IMG/VR virus record: IMGVR_UViG_2609459823_000005
Source of the DNA: a virus
Taxonomy: Duplodnaviria > Heunggongvirae > Uroviricota > Caudoviricetes
DNA length: 13,986 nucleotides
Reading direction: 5' to 3' (one strand)
Both the position numbers and the translations under genes were made by a program. The notes under the pieces were generated by a model, which made no database searches, had not been told where the DNA came from, and saw only the letters and a list, made by a program, of their open reading frames with translations. Below, piece after piece: positions 781 to 13,745 of this stretch (position 1 is the first letter of the stretch; each line of letters starts with the position of its first letter).

Positions 781-1064
781 TTGAATTTTTTTCATAAAAA
801 AAGCATATATCCATTTGATTTGGCATTTGTTTTTTTCGTGTTTCTTATGAGTCATTTTCGCGTTTTTTTTTGAAACGGCTCAATAATGCCAAATCAACGT
901 ATAAGAAATAAACGGAACAGAACGCCTCACTTTAATGGTTTGAGATTTTTCTTGTTTCCGTATTGGTTTAAGCAGAAAATGTGTTTCTTAACATTTAGTG
1001 CTTGGTAATGATTCTCAGTTGCACTACCGAGTGCCCTATTAATGAAATCGTTGGACGTTACGCA

Positions 1065-1103
1065 CAGCACACTGGTAGCTAATGAGCCAGGGGCGGTAGC
1101 GTG
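1065..1103 (+). promoter_or_regulatory. JUMPStart 39-bp element containing the ops site (GGCGGTAGCGTG at 1092-1103); RfaH-dependent antitermination signal
   Basis: The sequence cagcacactggtagctaatgagccaggggcggtagcgtg matches the conserved JUMPStart element found upstream of enterobacterial polysaccharide operons, and its 3' end matches the ops consensus GGCGGTAGnnTG exactly. It sits about 90 bp upstream of the rmlB start. Confidence 0.85.
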
Positions 1104-1192
1104 CCTTGTTTTTGAATCAATGCCCTGGCTTGAATTTTGCATGTCGGTGCCACAGTAACAACTCGCAAACGCAAAGTAGATGGAATAAACTC

Positions 1193-2281
1193 GTGAAAAT
1201 ATTGGTCACAGGTGGGGCAGGTTTTATTGGATCTGCTGTCGTCCGTAATATCATTAAGAATACTCAGGATTCTGTAGTTAATGTTGATAAATTAACCTAT
1301 GCGGGCAATCTTGAATCGCTGGTTGAAATCGAAAACAGCGCCCGTTATGCTTTTGAATGTGCAGACATTTGTGATGCTGAGGCGATGTCGCGTATTTTCG
1401 CCACTCACCAGCCTGATGCTGTTATGCATCTGGCTGCAGAAAGCCATGTAGATCGCTCGATCACCGGCCCTGCTGCTTTTATTGAGACAAATATCGTGGG
1501 CACCTATGTGCTGCTTGAAGCCGCACGTAAATACTGGTCTCAACTTGATGAAACAAGTAAAGCCGCGTTCCGCTTTCATCATATTTCAACGGACGAAGTC
1601 TACGGCGATTTGCCGCATCCTGATGAAGTCCCCGCTGGCACCGCCTTGCCGCTGTTTACCGAGAAAACCCCTTATTCTCCCAGCAGTCCGTATTCCTCAT
1701 CGAAAGCGTCAAGTGACCATTTAGTACGTGCATGGCGCCGTACTTACGGCTTGCCGACCCTGGTGACGAATTGCTCAAATAACTATGGCCCATACCATTT
1801 CCCTGAAAAACTTATTCCGCTGATCATTCTTAATGCATTAGCTGGTAAGCCGTTACCGGTGTATGGCAATGGCGAGCAAATTCGCGACTGGCTATTTGTT
1901 GAAGATCATGCACGCGCCTTATATAAGGTCGTCACTGAGGGGGTTGCGGGTGAGACTTACAATATCGGTGGTCACAATGAGCGTAAGAATATTGAAGTCG
2001 TAAATACTATTTGTACTATTCTGGACGAAATCATTACTGCGAAACCTAATAATATTAGTAGCTTTGCAGAATTAATTACTTATGTCACCGACCGTCCGGG
2101 CCATGATCTGCGTTACGCCATTGATGCGAGCAAAATAAAAGATGAACTGGGCTGGGTACCGCAGGAGACTTTTGAATCAGGTATCCGCAAAACGGTTGAA
2201 TGGTATTTGACTAACCAGGACTGGTGGCAGCGTGTGATGGATGGATCATATGCTGGTGAACGCCTGGGGCTCGCAGAATAA
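1193..2281 (+). CDS. rmlB: dTDP-glucose 4,6-dehydratase
   Basis: Preferred start is the in-frame GTG at 1193, giving [14 protein letters not shown] (Rossmann GxxGxxG) and a length of ~362 aa. The catalytic YSSSK (YxxxK) and other blocks ([21 protein letters not shown]) closely resemble E. coli RfbB as recalled. The track's ATG at 1106 is rejected because that extension overlaps JUMPStart/ops. Confidence 0.92.
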
Positions 2282-2296
2282 AATCGTAAGGACGGA

Positions 2297-3172
2297 ATGA
2301 TGAAAGGTATTGTATTAGCTGGCGGTTCTGGAACTCGTCTTTATCCGATTACTCAGGGTGTGTCAAAACAGTTATTGCCTGTTTATGACAAGCCGATGGT
2401 TTTTTACCCAATATCAGTTCTAATGTTGGCAGGTATTCGTGACATTTTGATTATCACGACGCCGGAAGATATGGCCGCGTTTCAACGCCTGTTGGGAGAC
2501 GGCTCTCAATTTGGTATTCGCCTTTCCTATACTGTCCAACCTTCGCCGGACGGTTTAGCGCAGGCATTTATTCTGGGTGAAGAGTTCATTAATAATGAAC
2601 CTTGTGCTCTGGTGCTGGGCGACAATATCTATTTTGGTCAGAGTTTTGGTAAAAAACTCGAGGTTGCCTCTCAGTTGACCCAAGGTGCGATGGTATTCGG
2701 TTATAAAGTACAGGATCCTGAGCGTTTTGGTGTGGTTGAATTTGATGCGAACTACAAGGCATTGTCCATTGAAGAAAAACCACAGAAGCCAAAATCCAGT
2801 TGGGCAGTAACCGGTCTCTATTTTTACGACAAAAACGTTGTGGAAATGGCGAAGCAAGTCAAACCATCTGCTCGCGGTGAACTCGAAATTACGACACTTA
2901 ACCAAATGTATCTTGAACGCGGTGAGCTTCAGGTAGAGTTGCTCGGACGTGGTTTCGCATGGCTTGACACCGGCACACATGACAGTCTGGTTGAGGCTTC
3001 ACAGTTTATTCATACCATTGAAAAAAGGCAGGGTATGAAAGTCGCTTGCCTTGAAGAGATTGCGTTTCGCAATGGATGGATCGGCAGAGAACAACTTTTA
3101 GCGCAGGCAAAACTGTTCAGCAAAAATGATTATGGTAAGTATCTAAAAGTATTGGCTGGAGAACATGAATGA
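2297..3172 (+). CDS. rmlA: glucose-1-phosphate thymidylyltransferase
   Basis: The N-terminus [16 protein letters not shown](x)[13 protein letters not shown] is the nucleotidyltransferase signature, and the ~290-aa protein closely resembles E. coli RfbA. There are tandem ATGs at 2297 and 2300; the RBS aaggacgg (2288-2295) favours 2300. The stop overlaps the rmlC start (ATGA at 3169-3172). Confidence 0.92.
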
Positions 3173-3705
3173 ACGTCATTGACACTAAAATAAGCGATGT
3201 GAAGATTATTGAGCCAAAAGTCTTTGGTGATGAACGAGGGTTCTTTTTAGAAACATTTGAAAAAAAGAGATATCAAACCCTTTTGAATATCGATATGGAT
3301 TTTGTACAGGATAACCACTCACGTTCCAGCAAAGGCGTACTTCGTGGGCTTCACTTTCAGCGCAATAATCCTCAGGGGAAACTTGTTCGAGTAGTTCGTG
3401 GCGAAGTGTTTGATGTTGCTGTTGATATTCGTAAAGACTCACCAACCTATGGGGTGTGGGAAGGTGTAATTTTGTCAGAAACGAATAAAAAGCAATTCTG
3501 GATCCCACCGGGACTTGCTCATGGTTTCCTGGTACTCTCGGATATTGCTGATTTCGAATATAAATGTACCGACTATTATGATAGCAGTAGTGAAGGCTGT
3601 TTAATCTGGAATGATGAGCAAGTTGGGATTGCATGGCCAGTAATAGACGCTGAGATTAAACTTTCAGCAAAAGATGCTGTTGGTAAGTTACTGCGTGACC
3701 TATAA
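3169..3705 (+). CDS. rmlC: dTDP-4-dehydrorhamnose 3,5-epimerase family protein (RmlC-like cupin)
   Basis: The 178-aa protein has [11 protein letters not shown], the catalytic His in VLRGLHFQ, the GKLVR lysine, [10 protein letters not shown] and a Tyr in FEYK, which is the RmlC fold signature. Whether it performs a full 3,5-epimerisation or a single epimerisation cannot be told from sequence. Confidence 0.8.
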
Positions 3706-3760: not shown

Positions 3761-4540
3761 GTGTTTAATAGTTTCATTCAAGGCCTGATAAATTATCGTG
3801 TTGTACTAAAACAATTAATAAGACAACAAGTAACGCTCAGGTATCGCAGAACAATGTTCGGTTTTTTATGGACCCTGCTTAATCCTCTTCTGAATATGGC
3901 AGTAATAGCGACTGTCTTTTCAATCGTAATGAAATTTCAGATAAGAGACTACGCCATTTTTCTCTTCTCTGCAGTTATTCCTTGGACTATGTTTTCAAAT
4001 ATCATTTCACAATGTTCTAATTCATTGATAGCAAATGAAAATCTATTTAAAAAAATATACTTACCAAAACAGATATTTATAACCGCTAGCGCAGTATCTG
4101 TTTTTATTGATTCGCTTCTGAGTACTATCTGTTTATTCATCATTGCATATTTCTTTGGCGCAAAATTAAGTTTGGCATTGATGTTTCTTCCAGTTTCATT
4201 TGCGATCTTATTTATATTCGCTTATGGTTTGGGTCTGATTTTTTCTGTAGTTTCTGTTTTTTTGCGCGACATGCAGTATCTGATCGGTGTGATTTTGCAA
4301 GCTCTATATTTTATGACCCCTATCATATATCCCGTTGATGCTGTTCCGGAACAGTACAAATGGGTTTTTGCATGGAATCCTATGTACTATTTTGTTGATT
4401 TATTTAGGGATCCAATCTACAACAATCAATTCCCTCCAGCTTATTCATTACAGCTTTGTGCGCTGACTGCCATTATTTCACTTTTGGTTGGTTTGTATGT
4501 ATTTAAAGTAAATGACAAAAAAATTATCTTCAGGTTGTAG
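3761..4540 (+). CDS. wzm: O-antigen/polysaccharide ABC transporter permease (ABC-2 family)
   Basis: The N-terminal motif LRYRRTMFGFLWTLLNPLL is typical of Wzm/KpsM, and the rest of the 259-aa protein is strongly hydrophobic with multiple predicted TM segments. Start is assigned to GTG 3761 with GAGG at 3747-3750; the ATG at 3854 would remove the conserved motif. The 3' end overlaps the wzt reading frame. Confidence 0.82.
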   Translation: MFNSFIQGLINYRVVLKQLIRQQVTLRYRRTMFGFLWTLLNPLLNMAVIATVFSIVMKFQIRDYAIFLFSAVIPWTMFSNIISQCSNSLIANENLFKKIYLPKQIFITASAVSVFIDSLLSTICLFIIAYFFGAKLSLALMFLPVSFAILFIFAYGLGLIFSVVSVFLRDMQYLIGVILQALYFMTPIIYPVDAVPEQYKWVFAWNPMYYFVDLFRDPIYNNQFPPAYSLQLCALTAIISLLVGLYVFKVNDKKIIFRL

Positions 4541-4541
4541 T

Positions 4542-5291
4542 ATGGAATCTAAAATTATTTTTAAAAATGTCTCTCTCGTATTTGATGAACATCAGCAACG
4601 AGGTCTGACGTTCAAAGAGTTATTTGCACGCACTCTCTCCGGTCGGAATAACGCTATAAAGGCGAATAAGAGAAAAGCTTTGGATTCAATAAGTATCGAG
4701 ATAAACCATGGAGAGCGAATCGGTATTGTCGGAAGCAATGGGGCAGGGAAAAGTACGTTCCTAAAAACACTTTGTCGTATTTATGAGCCAACCTCTGGTG
4801 AAATAAGCATATCAGGTAATATTGCACCGTTACTTGAGATTGGGGCTGGATTTAATCCAGAACTAAGCGGAAGAGAAAATATATATTTGAATGGTGCAAT
4901 TCTGGGCCATAGTATTTCTGAGCTTAAAAGTTTGGAAGCAGAAATTATTTCATTTTCAGAATTAAGTGAATATATTGATACACCTGTCAAATATTATTCA
5001 ACGGGCATGTATCTTAAATTAGCATTTTCAATTGCGACGGCAATCAAGCCTGATATTTTAGTTTTAGATGAACTGTTTGCTGGCGGTGACGCGGAATTTG
5101 TTGCTAAAGCTAAAAAAAGAATGGAACATTTCATCGCGGAATCAAGCATTATGTTTTTTGTATCTCATCAATTAGATTTGCTGCAGGAATTATGTACCCG
5201 CGTAATATGGATCGACCATGGTAAATTAATTGCTGATGGTGTACCAGACAAGGTAATTGAAGCATATTTGAATAAAGGTCATCATGATTAA
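4542..5291 (+). CDS. wzt: O-antigen/polysaccharide ABC transporter ATP-binding protein, short form without a C-terminal carbohydrate-binding domain
   Basis: Walker A GIVGSNGAGKST, ABC signature YSTGMYLKL, Walker B ILVLDELFAGGD and an H-loop (FFVSHQ) are all present. The track ORF begins at ATG 4512, but ATG 4542 (MESKIIFKNVSL) immediately follows the wzm stop and gives a typical N-terminus. At ~250 aa the protein is a nucleotide-binding domain only. Confidence 0.85.
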   Translation: MESKIIFKNVSLVFDEHQQRGLTFKELFARTLSGRNNAIKANKRKALDSISIEINHGERIGIVGSNGAGKSTFLKTLCRIYEPTSGEISISGNIAPLLEIGAGFNPELSGRENIYLNGAILGHSISELKSLEAEIISFSELSEYIDTPVKYYSTGMYLKLAFSIATAIKPDILVLDELFAGGDAEFVAKAKKRMEHFIAESSIMFFVSHQLDLLQELCTRVIWIDHGKLIADGVPDKVIEAYLNKGHHD

Positions 5292-6045
5292 TATTATAAT
5301 AGTCAGCCATCAAAATTTAGCTGACATTGATAAAATTCTCACAGAACTTGCGGGTGAAAATGATTATTATACTATTTATGTTCGTGACAATGTTGCTGAT
5401 GAGAATTTGAAGCGCCTTTGTTCTGATTATAACGTCTCATATTGTTCTGGTATTCGCCGAGAAGGCTTTGCCCTTAATAATAATATTGCTGCCGAAAAAG
5501 TATTACACTCATGTGAAATAGCTGATGATGATTATTTCCTGTTTATGAATCCTGATGCATATATTATTCGCGACGAGCTGATCAAACTCTCAACTATTTT
5601 GAGCGAAAAAAAATACGATATGTTCACTGTTGATCTGTATAGTAATGATGAATATACAATAAGAGATCCTTCCATTCGATATTTTCCAACGCTAAAAACA
5701 TTTCTATCTTCTTTTTTATTTGATACTAACAAAAGTATTATTAACAGGGATGCCATTCATCAAGATTTCGACCTGGATTGGTGTGCTAGCTCATTCTTTG
5801 GCGTTAAAGTTGGTTTGTTTAAAAGACTTAATGGCTTTGATTCCCGATTCTTTATGTATTGTGAAGATGTGGATATCTGTTACAGGGCTAAAAAATTAGG
5901 AGCCAAGCTTAGTTATATTGCAAATGTAAAAGCAATACACTACACTCAGAAAAATAGTAAAAAGATGCTCACTAAAAATTTTTATTGGCACGTTAAAAGT
6001 GCCATATTGTTTTTATGGAAAAAGCATACCCTGTCAAAAGGTTAA
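5284..6045 (+). CDS. GT2-family glycosyltransferase, WbbL-like dTDP-rhamnosyltransferase (candidate Rha to GlcNAc-PP-undecaprenol adaptor transferase)
   Basis: The 253-aa protein shares blocks with the E. coli WbbL rhamnosyltransferase as recalled from memory: IIIVSH, VRDN, DDDYFLFMNPDAY, DWCASSF, NGFD, FFMYCEDVDICYR, AIHY and WHVKS. The start overlaps the wzt stop by 8 bp. Confidence 0.6.
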   Translation: MINIIIVSHQNLADIDKILTELAGENDYYTIYVRDNVADENLKRLCSDYNVSYCSGIRREGFALNNNIAAEKVLHSCEIADDDYFLFMNPDAYIIRDELIKLSTILSEKKYDMFTVDLYSNDEYTIRDPSIRYFPTLKTFLSSFLFDTNKSIINRDAIHQDFDLDWCASSFFGVKVGLFKRLNGFDSRFFMYCEDVDICYRAKKLGAKLSYIANVKAIHYTQKNSKKMLTKNFYWHVKSAILFLWKKHTLSKG

Positions 6046-6050
6046 GATAA

Positions 6051-6944
6051 ATGTATTCTGTTGTGATGGGATTCCGCGAAAACTATAAACATTATGGGTA
6101 CACTACTCTTTTTTCTTTATTAACAAATAATAAAAACTCTTTTTTTTCAATCTATCTCCTTTCAGATAATCTGGATTTTGCATTTTTTAAAAAACTGGAG
6201 GATGTTTTTGCTTGCAAAATCATCCCTATTTCTATTTCGGCTGATCATATTGAAAATGTAAATTGTGGCTATCTTTCCTTTGGGACACTAATCCGCTTAT
6301 TAATCGGTGATTATCTTCCTGCTAATGTCGAAAAGGTTCTATACCTTGATGCTGATTTGATAATTGATGGCGATATTCATGAACTTCTTAATTATGAGTT
6401 AGGTTCACAGTATGCGGCAGTCGTAAGATCGAGTGCTCCTTATAAGCATCTCAAGGACATTAGGATAACATCCGAGCAGTACTTTAATGCGGGGGTGATA
6501 CTTTTTAATATGGAGATGTGTAGAAAAGATGATATTTTCATAAAAAGCCTTGATTTGTTAAAACGGAATAATTTTAAATATTTAGATCAAGATGCACTTA
6601 ATATTGCAATGGTAAACAATGTAAAATATGTTGATTCTAAATGGAATTTCGACTCATTTAGAGCAAAAACAATCTTACTTGATAGGAGTTATGCAAATAA
6701 ATACCCTGCAATAGCAATTTATCATTTTACAGGGCGTGACAAACCATGGTTTAAACATTGCATCAACCAGTATCAGAGTATTTATCTTCGTTATTTCGCT
6801 GAAATTCTAGGCTATGATGTTATCAATAATAAAAATAAATTTCAGTATTTTAAATTTAAACTGATTAAATTCTTATTCAGTAACTTTGTAACCCGTAAAA
6901 TTATTTACCATTTAAGAAACTATATTCGGACTAATATTCACTAA
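6051..6944 (+). CDS. GT8-family retaining glycosyltransferase (RfaJ/RfaI/LgtC-like; alpha-hexosyltransferase)
   Basis: GT8 hallmarks are present: the DxD motif in LYLDADLIIDGD, FNAGVILFN, YLDQDALN and the C-terminal HFTGRDKPW (H-x-x-G-x-x-KPW). Length is 297 aa and the donor sugar cannot be assigned from sequence. Confidence 0.75.
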   Translation: MYSVVMGFRENYKHYGYTTLFSLLTNNKNSFFSIYLLSDNLDFAFFKKLEDVFACKIIPISISADHIENVNCGYLSFGTLIRLLIGDYLPANVEKVLYLDADLIIDGDIHELLNYELGSQYAAVVRSSAPYKHLKDIRITSEQYFNAGVILFNMEMCRKDDIFIKSLDLLKRNNFKYLDQDALNIAMVNNVKYVDSKWNFDSFRAKTILLDRSYANKYPAIAIYHFTGRDKPWFKHCINQYQSIYLRYFAEILGYDVINNKNKFQYFKFKLIKFLFSNFVTRKIIYHLRNYIRTNIH

Positions 6945-6953
6945 GGACATTTT

Positions 6954-8333
6954 GTGGAGACTATACAAATAGCCACTGGAGTAAGTCGTAACTTCTTTGA
7001 CCCATTGAGTGTCATGCTTACTTCCTTGCTTGAAAATAATCAATCACATAAAATCAATTTTCATGTTTTGCACAGTGATTTTACGGATGATGATGAAGAA
7101 AAATTTAGCCTTTTGTTTACTAAATATGAAAACCTGGGGCTTAAATTCATCAAGTTAGATGAATCTAAATTAGAAGGGCTTCCCCTTCTGCAACATTTCA
7201 AGATCTCAACGTATTTTCGAATTCTGGCGCCAGCTGTTTTAAGTGAATATGATAAACTCCTTTATCTCGATGCCGACATTATTGTTGACAATGATATTCT
7301 GGAATTATGGCAGACCGATGTCACCAACTATACCCTCGCAGCAGTTCGTGAAGAGAGTATTGTCGCGTTAGATAAACGTTTGAGAATGCCTGCCAATTAT
7401 AAGTATTTCAATGCTGGTGTTGTTGTATTAAATAGTAAAAAAATTCGAGAAGAAAATAAGTTCGGTCCTGTTATCGATTATCTAAAAGAAAATATCAATG
7501 AGATCCTTTATCTTGATCAGGATGCTTTAAATGCTATTCTCTACGATGAATGGTTAGAAATAGACGAGAAATGGAATTATCATAATACCTTTATCCTGAA
7601 AAAAAATAATAACAAAGAGCATATCTTATTAGATAAACCAGTTATTATTCATTATACTGGTCCAGTCAAACCATGGGATGCGGAAAGTTCACATATATTT
7701 AAAAGCCGCTATTGGCATTACAAGAAAATATTAACAGGGAGTGTCGATGAAATTAAAGCTGGTTTTAACATACATAGTACGCTTGCTAAAAGAATAATAA
7801 AATATGCATATAGAGTTATTCTTTCCAATTATTATTTAAGAAAGCTGATTCTTAAAACAAATACATCATTAAAGCAGAGTGAGCATTTTGCGAAATATTA
7901 TTTTAAGTTTAAGGAACGTTTTGCTCCTGCACCTCAGATAATGTCGTCATTCGAAGCGAAGTTAGTTCAAGTTGATGTACCACTTCTAGAATCAACCATG
8001 GATTATGGTTTTTTCAGTATAAGGGAGTTCTTGAACTATATACAAATTTCTGGATATGTTTTCAAAAAAGAGTTTTCTGATAGAAATACTAATAAATATT
8101 TTGTCTTGAGAAACAGTGTCGACCCTAATTTGCTATATTGTTTTAAACTTAACAGTCATGACCATGTTTGGATTAATGATATATATAATGATGGTAATGA
8201 CTATTCAAAAAGTGGGTTCTTTAATTTCATCGGCAAAAGAGAGCTTAAAAGTGGAAGGTATGAAGTTGGATTAATCGTCCAAAATTCAAAAGGTGTACAT
8301 TATAAAATGACTGACACTACAGTAATTATTTGA
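6954..8333 (+). CDS. GT8-family glycosyltransferase with an extra ~190-aa C-terminal extension (two-domain protein)
   Basis: The N-terminal ~260 aa carry the GT8 motifs LYLDADIIVDND, FNAGVVVLN, YLDQDALN and HYTGPVKPW. The C-terminal portion has no GT8 similarity and contains a block (ISGYVF ... LKSGRYEV) that is also seen in the next protein. Start is GTG 6954 with RBS AAGGA at 6943-6947. Confidence 0.75.
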   Translation: METIQIATGVSRNFFDPLSVMLTSLLENNQSHKINFHVLHSDFTDDDEEKFSLLFTKYENLGLKFIKLDESKLEGLPLLQHFKISTYFRILAPAVLSEYDKLLYLDADIIVDNDILELWQTDVTNYTLAAVREESIVALDKRLRMPANYKYFNAGVVVLNSKKIREENKFGPVIDYLKENINEILYLDQDALNAILYDEWLEIDEKWNYHNTFILKKNNNKEHILLDKPVIIHYTGPVKPWDAESSHIFKSRYWHYKKILTGSVDEIKAGFNIHSTLAKRIIKYAYRVILSNYYLRKLILKTNTSLKQSEHFAKYYFKFKERFAPAPQIMSSFEAKLVQVDVPLLESTMDYGFFSIREFLNYIQISGYVFKKEFSDRNTNKYFVLRNSVDPNLLYCFKLNSHDHVWINDIYNDGNDYSKSGFFNFIGKRELKSGRYEVGLIVQNSKGVHYKMTDTTVII

Positions 8334-8343
8334 CGAGGAATCC

Positions 8344-9564
8344 ATGGATATTAAAATTTATTCGTCTTTTTATAAAAAATACTTCATTTATAAAAGCGAC
8401 ATTGTAGAACCTGTTTTTGTTGGTGCGGCCGAAAAGAATAATGATTTAGGCATCATTGGTGATGATACTGGCGATAATATTAGCGATAAAAACGGCACGT
8501 TCAATGAATTAACTTTAATTTATTGGGTCTGGAAAAATACTACAAATCAAGATTATGTAGGCTTCTGTCATTATAGAAGATATTTTATAAATAGAAGCAT
8601 CAGTAAATTTGAAAAAGCATTGCATCTTCTGATTCCACGCGATAAAGAGCGTAGAGAGCGTAAATTATTACGTTTGTTACAGCAGTTTGATAAAAATTGT
8701 GAATCCGAATTGAAAGGATTTGATATAGCGTTACCTAAGCCTATTGTTATGAATCGTACTTTGCGTGAACAATATGCTGATTATCATGATGGCGCGCATT
8801 ATGAGGAAATGGGTAAGGTTATTCGAGAATTACGTCCTGACATGTGGCCTGCTTACGAAGATGCGTCAAATCGAAATACTTTCTTCATCGCTAATATGTT
8901 CATTTTTAGCCGCAAGTATTTTGATCAATTTTGCGAGTTTGCCTTTCCGGTTCTTTTTGAACTAGAGAAAAGGTTAGAAGTGCCGGATGATATGTATCAA
9001 AAACGTATTTTTGGATACTTAGGTGAGCGGTTGGTAACAATCTTTGTAAATTATTTATATCAACAAAAGAATGTTAAATTCAAATATTTTGATCTATTAA
9101 ATACTGATGTTATTTTTTCAAATTACAAATCGTATCTAACCGAAAAAAAATTAATAAGCAGTAAAAATAAAAACTACGTCACTTTTGGTGCTGTTGATAA
9201 TCTAATCAAAATGTCAAACAATTTTTACTGCATGAATGGTTGGGTTATAATTAAAGATCGCGAATCCTATAATGTTACGGTTCAAATTGAGTTATATAGT
9301 GATGAAAACACTATTATGCTTAATAGCGAAAGACAGGATCGGCCTGATGTAACCCGGCACTTTATCAATGTTCATGATGGGTACGTTAATTACGATAATT
9401 GCGGCTATTACACTAGTTTTAAATGTGATGAGATTAAAAGTGGTGAATATAAAATTAAGTTTCATGCATTTGATAAAATAGAGAAAACAACTTCAATTTT
9501 TTATGTTTATGACTGTTTTTTAAAGAAACATAAAAATGAAGTTGAGCTTGTGAGGTTACCATGA
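8344..9564 (+). CDS. DUF4422-type putative glycosyltransferase (WbbI/WbbM-N-like, candidate galactofuranosyltransferase) with a C-terminal extension
   Basis: The motifs ELTLIYWVWKN, VGFCHYRRYF and GYLGERLVTIF match my recollection of the DUF4422 family, which includes known Galf-transferases; this is not verified by a profile search. The C-terminal ~110 aa (NGWVI ... IKSGEYKI) resemble the C-terminus of the preceding protein. RBS GAGGA at 8335-8339; the stop overlaps the glf start (ATGA). Confidence 0.6.
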   Translation: MDIKIYSSFYKKYFIYKSDIVEPVFVGAAEKNNDLGIIGDDTGDNISDKNGTFNELTLIYWVWKNTTNQDYVGFCHYRRYFINRSISKFEKALHLLIPRDKERRERKLLRLLQQFDKNCESELKGFDIALPKPIVMNRTLREQYADYHDGAHYEEMGKVIRELRPDMWPAYEDASNRNTFFIANMFIFSRKYFDQFCEFAFPVLFELEKRLEVPDDMYQKRIFGYLGERLVTIFVNYLYQQKNVKFKYFDLLNTDVIFSNYKSYLTEKKLISSKNKNYVTFGAVDNLIKMSNNFYCMNGWVIIKDRESYNVTVQIELYSDENTIMLNSERQDRPDVTRHFINVHDGYVNYDNCGYYTSFKCDEIKSGEYKIKFHAFDKIEKTTSIFYVYDCFLKKHKNEVELVRLP

Positions 9565-10730
9565 TTAGTTATGATTACATTATTGTAGGCTGCGGTCTTT
9601 CTGGTATTGTTCTGGCAAATAATATTGCTGAGAAATTAAATAAAAAAGTGCTTATTATTGAGAAGCGCGATCATATCGGAGGAAACTGTTACGATTACTA
9701 TGATGAACATGGTGTCCTTGTACATAAATATGGTCCGCATATTTTCCATACAAATTATAAAGATGTCTATGACTACCTTGATCAATTCACTGAATGGTAT
9801 GTTTATCAGTTCCAGGCACGAACACTGATTGATGGTAAAAAAACATTTTTGCCCTTCAACCTGAACACGATGAAGGATATTCTTGACGAGCATTTATATG
9901 ACAAGATATCTAAAAAACTCATCGAAGTTTATGGTTATGATAAAACCGTACCTATTTTCGAGTTAAAAAAATCAGAGGATGAAACCATCCAATGGTTGGT
10001 TGACTATATTTACGATAAAGTCTATGTGAACTATATCGCTAAACAATGGGACATGAAACCCGAAGACCTCGACAAGAGTGTGCTTGAACGTGTTCCCGTA
10101 TATATTTCTCGCGATAATCGATATTTCAAAGACAAATATCAAGTTATGCCACGAGACGGTTATACGGTTATGTTCAACCGGATGTTGGCAAACAAAAACA
10201 TACATGTTCTGTTGAATGCTAATGCAGACGATTTTGTCACGCTGACCGATAAGCATGAAGTTCACTTCATGGGCAAGCCATTTGAAGGCAAGTTGATTTA
10301 CACCGGTCAGATTGATCATCTTTTCAATTATAAATTTGGCGAGTTACCTTATCGTTCCTTGCGCTTTGATTTTGTTAATTACAAAAAAGAGTTCTTCCAG
10401 GAAGTGGCTATGGTTAGCTACCCAAATAATTATGATTTCACTCGTATTACGGAAAGTAAGCATTTGACCGGGCAGGATTGCAAAACGACCACTGTTGTTT
10501 ATGAATATCCCCAGAATTATGATCGTAATGATCCTATCAAAGATGTACCTTATTATCCTGTGCCAAGAGCCGATAACCATGAACTTTATGCAAAATATTC
10601 AGAGCTTGCTGGTAAGTATAAATCTTTGATACTGGTTGGTCGTTTAGCTCAATACAAGTACTACAACATGGATCAGATGATCAAAGTTGCCCTTGATACA
10701 TTTAAAGAAATTCAAGCTGGAGAAAAGTAA
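9561..10730 (+). CDS. glf: UDP-galactopyranose mutase family flavoprotein (NDP-hexopyranose mutase)
   Basis: The N-terminal FAD-binding YDYIIVGCGLSGIVLAN ... KKVLIIEKRDHIGGNCY and HKYGPHIFHTN closely parallel E. coli K-12 Glf as recalled, with conserved blocks throughout the 389 aa. A dTDP-fucopyranose mutase (Fcf2-like) cannot be excluded from sequence alone. Confidence 0.85.
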   Translation: MISYDYIIVGCGLSGIVLANNIAEKLNKKVLIIEKRDHIGGNCYDYYDEHGVLVHKYGPHIFHTNYKDVYDYLDQFTEWYVYQFQARTLIDGKKTFLPFNLNTMKDILDEHLYDKISKKLIEVYGYDKTVPIFELKKSEDETIQWLVDYIYDKVYVNYIAKQWDMKPEDLDKSVLERVPVYISRDNRYFKDKYQVMPRDGYTVMFNRMLANKNIHVLLNANADDFVTLTDKHEVHFMGKPFEGKLIYTGQIDHLFNYKFGELPYRSLRFDFVNYKKEFFQEVAMVSYPNNYDFTRITESKHLTGQDCKTTTVVYEYPQNYDRNDPIKDVPYYPVPRADNHELYAKYSELAGKYKSLILVGRLAQYKYYNMDQMIKVALDTFKEIQAGEK

Positions 10731-11662
10731 TGAAGACTATTTTAATTGTTGGTGGTTCTGGCTTCATGGGTGCGAATTTTACTGAATACTTTGTTGCGAA
10801 AGGCTACAAGGTTATTAGCTTCAGTAATTCACCAACCCGTATCCAGCATGAAAATGTGGTAAATGTTTGCGGTGATAGCCGTGATGCCGAAGCTATTAAT
10901 GAAATTTTTGTTAATCACAAAATTGATTTGGTTGTTTTTACGTTGACGAGTTTTTGGGTGGTTGATGGGGTGAGCTCCTATCAAGATTTGACCGCCATTA
11001 ACCTGACTGCGTTTATCGATGTACTGAATATCATGAAGCGTCACAATGTTAATGAAGTGATTTACATCTCTTCTGGTGGCTCTATCTATGGAGAGTCCGA
11101 TAAGCCGATTCCGGAAGATTCACCGCTCTGCCCGGTCAGTTTTTATGGCTGGATCAAAGAAGCGGCAGAAAGCTATCTTAAATATGAAGCCCGTATTAAT
11201 CCCCATTTGCGCTATCTTGTATTTCGTCCTTCCAATGTTTACGGAAAATATCAGCAGCTCAACCGCATCATTGGTGTAGCGCTTAAAAATACACATTTGG
11301 ACATCCCAATGAATATTTATGGTGGTGCGGATACGAAGAAAGACTATATTTATATCGATGATTTCTGTGAGATCATCTTTAATATCTTGAATAAAAATGT
11401 CTGGAACGAAACGTACAATATTGGTTCTGGTGTCGGAACCAGCATTCGAGAAATTCTGGATCTTGCTCAGGAAGTTGTGAATAAGCCACTTGCTGTTGAG
11501 TATGGAAAACAGAAAGAGGGTGATATCAGTTATAGCGTATTAGATGTTGAGAAAGTTAAGGCTGTAACTGGTAAGCAAAGCTTCACCAACGTCAAAGACG
11601 GCATGCGTAAAATGTATCCGTACGTTGTCGAAGAACTGGCACGTCTGGCAGCGAAGGCCTAA
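10730..11662 (+). CDS. NAD(P)-dependent epimerase/dehydratase (extended SDR) family protein; candidate nucleotide-sugar 4-reductase or 4-epimerase
   Basis: Rossmann motif IVGGSGFMGANF at the N-terminus and catalytic YGWIK (YxxxK) preceded by ISSGGS. Length is 310 aa and the start overlaps the glf stop (TAATG). Precise activity is not assignable by eye. Confidence 0.7.
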   Translation: MKTILIVGGSGFMGANFTEYFVAKGYKVISFSNSPTRIQHENVVNVCGDSRDAEAINEIFVNHKIDLVVFTLTSFWVVDGVSSYQDLTAINLTAFIDVLNIMKRHNVNEVIYISSGGSIYGESDKPIPEDSPLCPVSFYGWIKEAAESYLKYEARINPHLRYLVFRPSNVYGKYQQLNRIIGVALKNTHLDIPMNIYGGADTKKDYIYIDDFCEIIFNILNKNVWNETYNIGSGVGTSIREILDLAQEVVNKPLAVEYGKQKEGDISYSVLDVEKVKAVTGKQSFTNVKDGMRKMYPYVVEELARLAAKA

Positions 11663-11862
11663 TAGCTTATCCTGCTTCTTGAGCAAGAGATGATTGTAAT
11701 GGTTTTGTTAACACTTTTTTGCTCAATAGTGGGCTAGTCCTTTAAAACTTTTTTAGGTTAACATGTTAGTCACGTATCCCGACGGCGAATGCGGCGTCGG
11801 GAATCCACACCTGACAGGAGTTTTGCATGCCTAAGCAACAAATCGGCGTTGTTGCTTAGGCC

Positions 11863-13233
11863 GTGATGGGGCGCAACCTGGCGCTTAACATCGAAAGCCG
11901 TGGCTATACCGTTTCCGTTTTCAACCGCTCCCGCGATAAGACCGAAGAAGTGATTGCCGAGAACCCCGGCAAGAAGCTGGTTCCGTATTATACCGTGAAA
12001 GAGTTTGTTGAATCCTTAGAAACTCCCCGTCGCATCCTGTTAATGGTGAAAGCGGGCGCTGGCACAGATGCTGCTATTGACTCCCTGAAACCCTATCTGG
12101 AAAAAGGCGACATCATTATTGATGGCGGTAACACCTTCTTCCAGGACACCATTCGTCGTAACCGCGAACTGTCTGCTGAGGGCTTTAACTTTATCGGTAC
12201 CGGTGTGTCCGGTGGTGAAGAGGGCGCACTGAAAGGCCCATCCATCATGCCTGGCGGTCAGAAGGATGCCTATGAACTGGTCGCACCGATCCTGACCAAA
12301 ATTGCAGCCGTTGCCGAAGATGGCGAGCCCTGTGTGACCTATATCGGTGCTGACGGTGCGGGCCATTACGTTAAAATGGTTCACAACGGTATCGAATATG
12401 GCGACATGCAGTTGATTTCAGAAGCCTACTCTCTGCTGAAAGGCGGTCTTAACCTGTCTAACGAAGAGCTGGCCACCACTTTTAGCGAGTGGAATAAAGG
12501 CGAGCTGAGCAGCTACCTGATCGACATTACCAAGGACATCTTCACTAAAAAAGATGAAGAGGGTAACTATCTGGTCGATGTGATTCTCGATGAAGCGGCC
12601 AACAAAGGTACGGGTAAATGGACCAGCCAAAGCTCGCTGGATCTCGGCGAACCGCTCTCCCTGATCACCGAATCCGTATTCGCACGCTATATCTCGTCGC
12701 TGAAAGAGCAGCGCGTTGCCGCATCTAAAGTTCTGAGCGGTCCGCAGGCCCAGCCTGCTGGCGATAAAGTGCAGTTTATCGAGAAAGTCCGTCGCGCATT
12801 GTATCTCGGTAAAATCGTCTCTTATGCCCAGGGTTTCTCTCAGTTGCGTGCTGCGTCTGACGAATACAACTGGGATCTGAACTATGGCGAAATCGCGAAA
12901 ATTTTCCGCGCTGGCTGCATCATTCGTGCACAGTTCCTGCAGAAAATTACCGATGCATACGCTGAAACACCGGCAATTGCTAACCTGCTGTTGGCACCTT
13001 ACTTTAAGAAAATTGCCGATGAGTATCAGCAGGCTTTGCGTGATGTTGTAGCCTATGCCGTACAAAATGGTATTCCGGTACCGACTTTTGCCGCTGCGGT
13101 TGCCTATTACGATAGCTACCGTGCTGCGGTACTGCCGGCAAACCTGATTCAGGCTCAGCGTGATTACTTTGGCGCACATACTTATAAACGTACTGATAAA
13201 GAAGGTGTATTCCATACGGAATGGCTGGATTAA
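11863..13233 (+). CDS. gnd: 6-phosphogluconate dehydrogenase (decarboxylating), N-terminal region disrupted
   Basis: The 456-aa ORF matches E. coli Gnd over essentially its whole length ([17 protein letters not shown] ... GVFHTEWLD). The conventional start is ATG 11827, preceded by RBS AGGAG (11816-11820), and would encode MPKQQIGVVA before an in-frame TAG at 11857-11859. The intact ORF therefore restarts only at GTG 11863 / ATG 11866 and lacks the first strand of the NADP-binding fold. Confidence 0.8.
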
Positions 13234-13364: not shown

Positions 13365-13745
13365 TTACTTACGGCCCGTAAACGGGCTGCCCGGATAGGG
13401 AATCGATAACTGCTCTCCCATTTTATCCTCTTCAAGCTGGTGCTTTATGTAATCCTGTATCTTCGCCGTGTTCTTACCCATCGTATCGACGTAATACCCT
13501 CTGCACCAGAACTCCCTGTTCCTGTATTTGAATTTCAAATCACCAAACTGCTCGTAAAGCATCAGACTGCTTTTCCCTTTCAGATATCCCATAAAGCCTG
13601 ATACGCTCATTTTGGGCGGGATCTCCACAAGCATATGGATATGATCTGCACAGCATTCAGCTTCCAGAATCCGTACACTTTTCCACTCACACAGCTTTCT
13701 CAAAATACTGCCTGTTGCTCTACGCTTCTCTCTGTAGAACACCTG
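13365..13745 (-). pseudogene. tnpA: IS200/IS605-family (IS200-like) transposase tnpA, 5'-truncated by IS1 insertion
   Basis: The minus-strand ORF encodes FYREKRRATGSILRKLCEWKSVRILEAECCADHIHMLVEIPPK ... YPGSPFTGRK, which matches IS200 TnpA as recalled, including the HuH motif (HIHML). About 27 N-terminal codons are missing; the match stops at 13745, where IS1 sequence begins. Confidence 0.85.

Follow-up and report, generated by a model that had tools for sequence, protein, structure and literature searches.

The 13,986-nucleotide stretch of DNA catalogued as IMG/VR virus record IMGVR_UViG_2609459823_000005, which as a whole is called the window here, holds an ABC-transporter-type gene cluster for an O-polysaccharide. 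It carries rmlB, rmlA and rmlC but not rmlD, and it encodes at positions 10730-11662 (+ strand) a protein of 310 amino acids that belongs to the extended short-chain dehydrogenases/reductases (SDR). Judged by its sequence and by the company its gene keeps, this SDR is very probably an NAD(P)H-dependent C4-reductase of dTDP-4-keto-6-deoxyhexoses rather than a GalE-type epimerase. As a whole, the pattern would best be explained by a C4-reductase from a GalE-like branch of the SDRs, unrelated to RmlD, that completes the only nucleotide-sugar pathway of the cluster, and we give this complete explanation an even chance. The leading guess for the product in the window's clade, based on analogy and a little short of an even chance, is 6-deoxy-L-altrose.

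Genomic contexts of the SDR family

In a first-pass annotation of the window, the SDR at the 3' end of the cluster was put forward as a candidate 4-reductase. Its gene proved to be a real and intact open reading frame with an ATG start, and the only other SDR protein encoded in the window is RmlB. A homologue search revealed a compact family of proteins sharing at least 46% identity, followed by a gap to proteins with at most 35% identity. The gene of every sampled member of the family lies in an ABC-transporter O-polysaccharide cluster that also holds rmlB, rmlA, wzm/wzt and genes for a DUF4422 protein and a mutase, and the family was never seen apart from rmlA and rmlB in the loci inspected. 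The relatives with at most 35% identity are found in unrelated clusters, those with ~34% in clusters for nonulosonic acids. A scan of genome contigs with the SDR returned only one unrelated SDR, from Dehalococcoidia, with 25% identity.

In a neighbour-joining tree, the SDRs from loci that contain rmlC group together as a single clade. The loci of this clade that were inspected are the window with the E. coli contigs identical to it, a Citrobacter-like chromosome (L005), Franconibacter helveticus (L008), Ewingella americana (L013), and the loci L007, L009 and L010. All of them carry rmlB, rmlA, rmlC, wzm/wzt, genes for GT8 and DUF4422 transferases, the mutase gene and the SDR gene, and none carries rmlD. 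L010 is a rearranged, non-enterobacterial version in a different genomic setting, and it has kept rmlC. Cronobacter turicensis was found by name to have a member of the SDR family (protein EKY3120871.1). In nearly all loci of the clade, the start codon of the SDR gene overlaps the stop codon of the mutase gene; in the window, the ATG and the TAA are joined as TAATG (10728-10732). A variant is found in L007 (6228-8827) and L009 (1-2209), which have the same rml genes and mutase and an SDR with 87% identity, and where a short DUF4422 protein and a 605-amino-acid transferase with a GlfT2_N domain, i.e., of the mycobacterial galactan-polymerase type, replace the long GT8 and DUF4422 proteins.

Other loci with a member of the family lack rmlC. 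In Erwinia amylovora (L003), Pantoea agglomerans (L014), Rahnella aceris (L015 and L016) and L019, the genes are arranged as rmlB-rmlA-SDR-wzm-wzt-wbbM-glf-GT2-GT4, with neither rmlC nor rmlD, and the SDRs are 46-54% identical to that of the window. The product of RmlB would be a dead end in these loci unless it is reduced by the SDR, which is, thus, the sole enzyme there that could complete a dTDP-sugar donor. Since Erwinia and Pantoea have a separate, genuine galE two genes upstream, a second GalE is not needed. Furthermore, the lipopolysaccharide (LPS) of E. amylovora contains fucose according to a figure legend (PMC13101476, Fig. 7 legend). Because of this combination of gene content, the upstream galE and fucose in the LPS, the SDR is read as a C4-reductase of galacto stereochemistry. 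The context that is characteristic of Fcf1/Fcd enzymes (EC 1.1.1.266), i.e., a sole tailoring enzyme after RmlA and RmlB and fucose in the glycan, is indeed seen in E. amylovora, whereas the window itself also has rmlC.

Apart from the addition of rmlB-rmlA-SDR, the rmlC-less loci have the same gene order as the D-galactan I cluster of Klebsiella pneumoniae O1/O2 (wzm-wzt-wbbM-glf-wbbN-wbbO). They may be regarded as galactan I look-alikes with a D-fucose module, which predicts a galactan-I-like backbone with one D-fucose residue. The window differs from the Klebsiella cluster in that its DUF4422 and GT8 modules are split, its mutase is of another lineage, and rmlC and the SDR gene are added. 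Some of the rmlC-less loci also carry a gene for a pyruvyltransferase.

Sequence features and predicted fold of the SDR

The SDR matches the Pfam families Epimerase (PF01370; 2.8e-36) and GDP_Man_Dehyd (6e-26) but reaches the cut-off of no NCBIfam model. Its best score was obtained with the GalE model TIGR01179 (118.6 bits vs. a cut-off of 262.3), and the RmlB model TIGR01181 (103 bits; cut-off 365) and the RmlD models TIGR01214 (41.4 bits; cut-off 224) and NF007440 (24.3 bits; cut-off 308) scored lower. No match to E. coli RmlD was found by BLASTP at E<=1e-3, and the identity to the GalE of E. amylovora is 24%. Clear orthology to UDP-hexose 4-epimerases, which according to the first-pass annotation would speak against a reductase, was not found either, as is evident from the score with TIGR01179 and from identities of only 20-27%. 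When the label Fcf1 or Fcd was sought in the names of the low-identity homologues of the SDR, all names turned out to be generic.

The catalytic triad of Ser115, Tyr139 and Lys143 is kept. In an alignment of 45 sequences, Ser114, Ser115 and Lys143 are invariant and Tyr139 is nearly so. The Asp-Glu pair of the 4,6-dehydratases is absent from the family, which has SSGGS where RmlB has STDE. At the end of strand β2, most members have Ser or Gly followed by Asn or Arg (Ser-Asn in the window, within VISFSN), whereas GalE, RmlB and RmlD carry at this position an Asp that binds the NAD ribose (Asp-Asn in GalE). As far as sequence features can tell, a dehydratase and an RmlD are excluded. The features are compatible with an exchange of NAD(P)H by the enzyme but do not by themselves separate a reductase from an epimerase. 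This also holds for the predicted fold, which is confidently GalE-like: the AlphaFold (AF2) model of the SDR has a predicted local distance difference test (pLDDT) score of 93.6 and, in Foldseek, a template-modelling (TM) score of 0.91 to the short GalE of Thermotoga maritima (TM0509; 4zrm), with 27% identity. The likeness to this epimerase in fold and Ser/Tyr/Lys triad contrasts with the low identity, the score below the GalE cut-off, the missing NAD-anchoring Asp and the obligatory association of the SDR with rmlA and rmlB.

An intact rmlC without rmlD

The first-pass annotation had reported rmlB, rmlA and an rmlC-like gene without an accompanying rmlD, and this description was confirmed. 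The three genes that are present were recognized by profile matches. A tblastn search with E. coli RmlD, taken from locus L018, gave no match at E<=0.01 in any frame of the window or in any related locus. In the same search, the query matched its own source locus and found the independent RmlD of locus L027 at 80% identity. Also the chromosomal versions of the cluster, located between galF and gnd-his in the Citrobacter-like, Franconibacter and Ewingella genomes (L005, L008 and L013), lack rmlD. A recent deletion of rmlD was considered and rejected; the gap between rmlB and rmlA is 15 bp, and loci with only 70-87% identity show this layout as well.

The rmlC gene (3169-3705, +), for a dTDP-4-keto-6-deoxyglucose 3,5-epimerase, is intact. 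Its product scored 263 bits with TIGR01221 (cut-off 155.75) and has kept the His of NHS, the Lys of GKLVR, the Tyr of FEYK and the Asp of SxKD. It shares 58% identity with an RmlC that has RmlD as its partner, and 40% with HS41.19 of Campylobacter jejuni (4e-30). RmlC is the best-conserved protein of the cluster, with 92, 90, and 84% identity to its counterparts in L005, L008, and L013, respectively, as compared to 74-85% for RmlA and RmlB. Synonymous sites are saturated, and, therefore, only the non-synonymous divergence (dN) and protein identity were used, and no dN/dS ratios; dN was lowest in the cluster for rmlC. The idea that rmlC is a decaying remnant was rejected on the basis of its conservation and its catalytic motifs. 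Since RmlC is intact and conserved, an active 3,5-epimerase would feed the only reductase present.

Proposed pathway and product

The closest precedent for this set of enzymes is found in the capsule of C. jejuni HS:41 (Simons, Narindoshvili and Raushel 2025, PMC12369002). There, the C4-reductase alone produces CDP-D-fucose, but mainly CDP-6-deoxy-L-altrose, which is its epimer at C5, when an RmlC-like 3,5-epimerase is added. A single FADH2-dependent mutase turns either product into the furanose, and the reductase is NADPH-dependent (PMC12369002). All five functions, i.e., a nucleotidyltransferase, a 4,6-dehydratase, an RmlC-like 3,5-epimerase, an SDR-type C4-reductase (as proposed) and a Glf-type FAD mutase, are co-located in the window without RmlD, and the switch in product upon presence or absence of the epimerase is mirrored by the existence of clusters with and without rmlC. 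The systems differ in the nucleotide carrier, which is CDP in HS:41, whereas the nucleotidyltransferase (RmlA) and dehydratase (RmlB) of the window are of the dTDP type. Moreover, the HS:41 genes form a capsule locus, whereas the window is an ABC-transporter O-polysaccharide cluster, and its rmlC contains no poly-G tract for phase variation, the sole run being A7 at position 3260.

By analogy, the following pathway can be proposed. RmlA and RmlB would produce dTDP-4-keto-6-deoxy-D-glucose. In the rmlC-less relatives, the SDR would reduce this product directly to dTDP-D-fucose, as suggested by gene content and by the fucose in the LPS of E. amylovora. In the window's clade, RmlC would first scramble C3 and C5, after which the SDR, if it behaves like the reductase of the biochemically demonstrated CDP pathway in HS:41, would most likely trap the C5 epimer as dTDP-6-deoxy-L-altrose, possibly together with some dTDP-D-fucose. 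The translationally coupled mutase may then contract the product to a furanose for the DUF4422 furanosyltransferase or, alternatively, may supply UDP-galactofuranose (UDP-Galf). The polymer would be assembled on an undecaprenyl carrier and exported by Wzm/Wzt. The proposed sugar is not foreign to the O antigens of Enterobacterales, as 6-deoxy-L-altrofuranose is known in Yersinia pseudotuberculosis O:5b and O:11 (PMC8533242).

Several observations weigh against this pathway. The SDR of the window is not orthologous to the HS:41 reductase HS41.18: only 44 N-terminal residues align (E=0.002), and, judged from the sequences, the C3 selectivity of HS41.18 cannot be transferred to it. Among solved structures, short C4-epimerases of the GalE type come closest, with 20-27% identity, and a subgroup with 59% identity to the window SDR (P0020 type) does have the Asp at the end of β2. 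The mutase of the window is ~55% identical to many ordinary UDP-galactopyranose mutases (UGMs), and that of the rmlC-less clusters is an orthologue of the UDP-galactopyranose mutase of K. pneumoniae (695 bits for E. amylovora); thus, the link between the SDR and the mutase may be one of co-residence only. The fucose in the LPS of E. amylovora may be the D or the L form, and no O-polysaccharide structure was found in the literature for the carriers C. turicensis, Franconibacter and Ewingella.

Two other products have to be considered. The first-pass annotation suggested that the SDR replaces RmlD, reducing dTDP-4-keto-L-rhamnose to dTDP-L-rhamnose or 6-deoxy-L-talose. The sugar could serve, e.g., as an adaptor on undecaprenyl-diphosphate-linked N-acetylglucosamine (Und-PP-GlcNAc), while the mutase would give UDP-Galf for a galactofuranose polymer. 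RmlC is a canonical, conserved 3,5-epimerase, rmlD is missing from the resident O-antigen locus in several species, and the mutase resembles ordinary UGMs, all of which would suit this proposal. Stereochemical reasoning suggests that, if the hydride attacked C4 from the side that leads to D-fucose, the 3,5-epimer would become L-rhamnose, and the variant locus with the GlfT2-like transferase recalls the GlcNAc-Rha-Galf linker of mycobacteria. RmlD- and Tll-type enzymes, the usual followers of RmlC, are NAD(P)H-dependent SDR C4-reductases, like that proposed for the window. However, beyond the Rossmann fold, no sequence relation of the SDR to either type was detectable, and it has a longer, GalE-like architecture. 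In Erwinia, Pantoea and Rahnella, members of this family do their work in the absence of RmlC. Furthermore, rmlD usually travels with rmlBAC, as in L018 and L027, and the fact that it is consistently replaced points to another product than L-rhamnose. Also the premise of a rhamnosyltransferase failed. The 253-residue GT-A-like glycosyltransferase encoded at 5284-6045 (+), which had been called WbbL-like, gave only matches to GT2 families below the Pfam gathering thresholds and 18.8 bits with TIGR01556 (cut-off 200.55); it showed no BLAST similarity to the GT2 protein encoded after rfbBADC in L018, and no relative was found in the PDB. Thus, of the earlier proposal, the role of the missing C4-ketoreductase is supported, considering the relatives with rmlB-rmlA-SDR at 46-54% identity, but a stand-in for RmlD in the synthesis of L-rhamnose or 6-deoxy-L-talose is unlikely.

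The other possibility, a route to D-fucofuranose analogous to Fcf1/Fcf2 with participation of the Glf homologue, had been offered in the first-pass annotation as an alternative. In E. coli O52, Fcf1 (dTDP-4-dehydro-6-deoxyglucose reductase) and Fcf2 (dTDP-fucopyranose mutase) constitute an established dTDP-based precedent (PMC10888714; PMC7685785), and the window resembles the O52 cluster in being of the dTDP-based, ABC-transporter O-antigen type and in having, besides rmlA and rmlB, a reductase other than RmlD and a homologue of Glf. In such a route, the SDR would take only the unepimerised product of RmlB to form dTDP-D-fucose, and the mutase would convert this into dTDP-D-fucofuranose. RmlC would be a passenger or would feed an RmlD encoded elsewhere, e.g., in the chromosomal O-antigen cluster of the host. 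The rmlC-less relatives do imply a reductase of the D-fucose type, and, since the E. coli cluster is plasmid-borne, a host rmlD could exist. This alternative comes closer, but, in contrast to the HS:41 precedent, it leaves the strictly conserved rmlC unexplained: as far as established, RmlC has no role in O52, whereas rmlC is the best-conserved gene over a saturating synonymous divergence and is lacking from no locus of the clade, not even L010. The cluster itself forms the resident galF-gnd locus, without rmlD, in the Citrobacter-like, Franconibacter and Ewingella genomes. Moreover, with RmlC active in the same cytoplasm, the reductase would in any case encounter epimerised substrate, as in HS:41. 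D-fucose as the only product in the window's clade is, therefore, doubtful.

It is very improbable that the SDR is a GalE/Gne-like C4-epimerase that has no part in the dTDP pathway and provides the GT8 transferases and the mutase with UDP-galactose: although its best sequence and structure matches are of the GalE type, some databases label family members "UDP-glucose 4-epimerase", and UDP-galactose would be required if the mutase is a true UGM, the score and identities fall far from those of GalE, most members carry another residue instead of the Asp that anchors permanently bound NAD+, the family is always found with rmlA and rmlB, and in Erwinia and Pantoea, where a genuine galE is at hand, rmlB-rmlA would end in a dead-end keto-sugar.

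Mutase and putative furanosyltransferase

The reductase-like SDR is preceded by a gene for a Glf-type, FAD-dependent nucleoside diphosphate-pyranose/furanose mutase (9561-10730, +), which scored 454.7 bits with TIGR00031. The protein is 39% identical to HS41.17 of C. jejuni (5e-89), and its best match in the PDB is the UGM of Deinococcus radiodurans (333 bits). The label "dTDP-fucopyranose mutase" was sought among the homologues of the mutase, but only UGM labels were found. Hence, the enzyme may supply UDP-Galf rather than a 6-deoxyhexofuranose.

Immediately upstream, at 8344-9564 (+), lies the gene for a DUF4422 (GT111-like) protein, a putative hexofuranosyltransferase with a C-terminal extension (Pfam DUF4422, 3.6e-61). 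Its match in Klebsiella WbbM (6u4b; 2.9e-32) is the N-terminal domain, i.e., the GT111 domain, which is known as a furanosyltransferase. Because of this match, a furanose of some kind is expected in the polymer. Two genes for GT8 glycosyltransferases precede it. The first (6051-6944, +; Pfam Glyco_transf_8, 1.4e-35) encodes an enzyme of the retaining alpha-hexosyltransferase type, and the second (6954-8333, +) a protein of 459 residues that matches Glyco_transf_8 (3.7e-51) with residues 6-243 and has a C-terminal extension of ~215 residues. The C-terminal extensions of the second GT8 protein and of the DUF4422 protein (406 residues), which comprise ~170-215 residues and have no Pfam match, might hold these two separate proteins together; in Klebsiella WbbM, the corresponding catalytic modules are fused.

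Organization of the remaining cluster

At the head of the operon, a single exact match in the window to the ops element GGCGGTAG of the JUMPStart region is found at positions 1092-1099 (+), ~95 bp upstream of the start of rmlB. The rmlB gene (1193-2281, +), for dTDP-glucose 4,6-dehydratase, encodes a protein of 362 residues (Pfam GDP_Man_Dehyd, 5e-90), of which the identical sequence is present on many contigs. Its start is the GTG at 1193; the TTG at 1106 in the list of open reading frames would run over the ops element. It is followed by rmlA (2297-3172, +), for glucose-1-phosphate thymidylyltransferase (Pfam NTP_transferase, 3e-75), and, after rmlC, by the transporter genes. These are wzm (3761-4540, +), for an ABC-2 permease (Pfam ABC2_membrane, 4e-20), and wzt (4542-5291, +), for an ABC-transporter ATPase of the short form without a carbohydrate-binding extension (Pfam ABC_tran). 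The start of wzt was taken from the gene call of 249 residues in the identical locus L002. The rmlB gene has a G+C content of ~46-49%, which drops to 28-35% over the transferase genes. The possibility that the cluster is that of Enterobacter cloacae O23, the only wzm/wzt type of that species, was rejected, as the wzt primers (PMC7198725) match neither the window nor any of the fetched loci.

Downstream of the SDR gene lies a copy of gnd (11827-13233, +; Pfam 6PGD, 1e-133) that was carried along with the cluster. It has an in-frame TAG at codon 11 (11857-11859). Alignment with L005 and L008 revealed that codons 10-11 are GCT TAG vs. GGT ATG in the relatives, and the same change is present in the independent contig L002. 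The stop codon removes the first β-strand and the glycines of the NADP-binding motif. Judging from the sequence, this copy of gnd probably either has no function or is translated from the GTG at 11863 by re-initiation.

Plasmid setting and apparent mobility

The SDR of the window falls into a cluster of sequences at 90% identity of which the named members are from E. coli, and NCBI contigs exist that are 99.9-100% identical to the window. In two of these contigs (L023 and L026, 1-9900), the upstream region is a plasmid backbone (ParA, ImpC/A/B, YagA, DUF1281, IS110, PsiB) with 97-99% identity to E. coli/Shigella plasmids. In two others (L024 and L025), a different upstream flank, with a group II intron reverse transcriptase and AlpA, is joined via the same IS3-family element. 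E. coli isolates with this locus are represented by the assemblies GCA_958310955.1, GCA_033850495.1, GCA_013039125.1 and GCA_040163605.1, and the carriers F. helveticus and E. americana by GCA_003207695.1 and GCA_054495145.1, respectively. The closest chromosomal relatives are located at the galF-gnd-his locus of the Citrobacter-like and Franconibacter genomes. No copy of the cluster was present in PLSDB or in 5,426 complete E. coli genomes; when the latter were searched with the mutase-SDR region by megablast and blastn, no match was found, or only one of ~190 bp of glf. Consequently, the cluster is none of the O types represented in these genomes. The E. coli version appears to be an import, bounded by insertion sequences (IS) and plasmid-borne, that is not located at the chromosomal galF-gnd locus.

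A partial IS3-family transposase gene (HTH_21 and rve domains; 25-732, +) and an open reading frame for an IS200-like Y1 transposase downstream of gnd (13365-13742, -) bracket the whole cluster. Related rml genes in other mobile settings were also encountered. On the IncX3 resistance plasmid NZ_CP036195.1 of K. pneumoniae (L027, 11245-24936), rfbBADC, an ABC transporter and rhamnan-synthesis genes are flanked by IS26 on both sides, and rfbB-rfbA is 89% identical to positions 928-3079 of the window, the upstream non-coding region included. On an E. coli chromosome (L018; NZ_CP139125.1, 2927-9893), a related rfbBADC-GT2-wzm-wzt arrangement with IS26 upstream lies beside prophage genes.

Implications

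It is possible, albeit tentative, that the window represents the first dTDP-based route to 6-deoxy-L-altrose, possibly in the furanose form. This route would combine RmlA, RmlB and RmlC with an uncharacterised family of GalE-like C4-reductases and a Glf-type mutase on an IS-bounded unit of a conjugative-type E. coli plasmid, for a sugar that has been reported in none of the 185 O serogroups of E. coli.

If the reductase role of the SDR is true, it would give a function to a widespread SDR family, members of which occur in E. coli, Citrobacter, Cronobacter, Franconibacter, Ewingella, Erwinia, Pantoea and Rahnella and are now labelled "NAD-dependent epimerase/dehydratase" or, wrongly, "UDP-glucose 4-epimerase". 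It would also explain the recurrent pattern of rmlBAC without rmlD, which is read by automated annotation as an incomplete rhamnose pathway. The proposal predicts D-fucose in the O antigens from rmlC-less clusters and 6-deoxy-L-altrose in those from rmlC-containing clusters, with carriers that include the fire-blight pathogen and opportunists associated with infant formula. Finally, the plasmid-borne E. coli version is a candidate for horizontal serotype conversion and would interfere with O-genotyping that relies on the galF-gnd locus.

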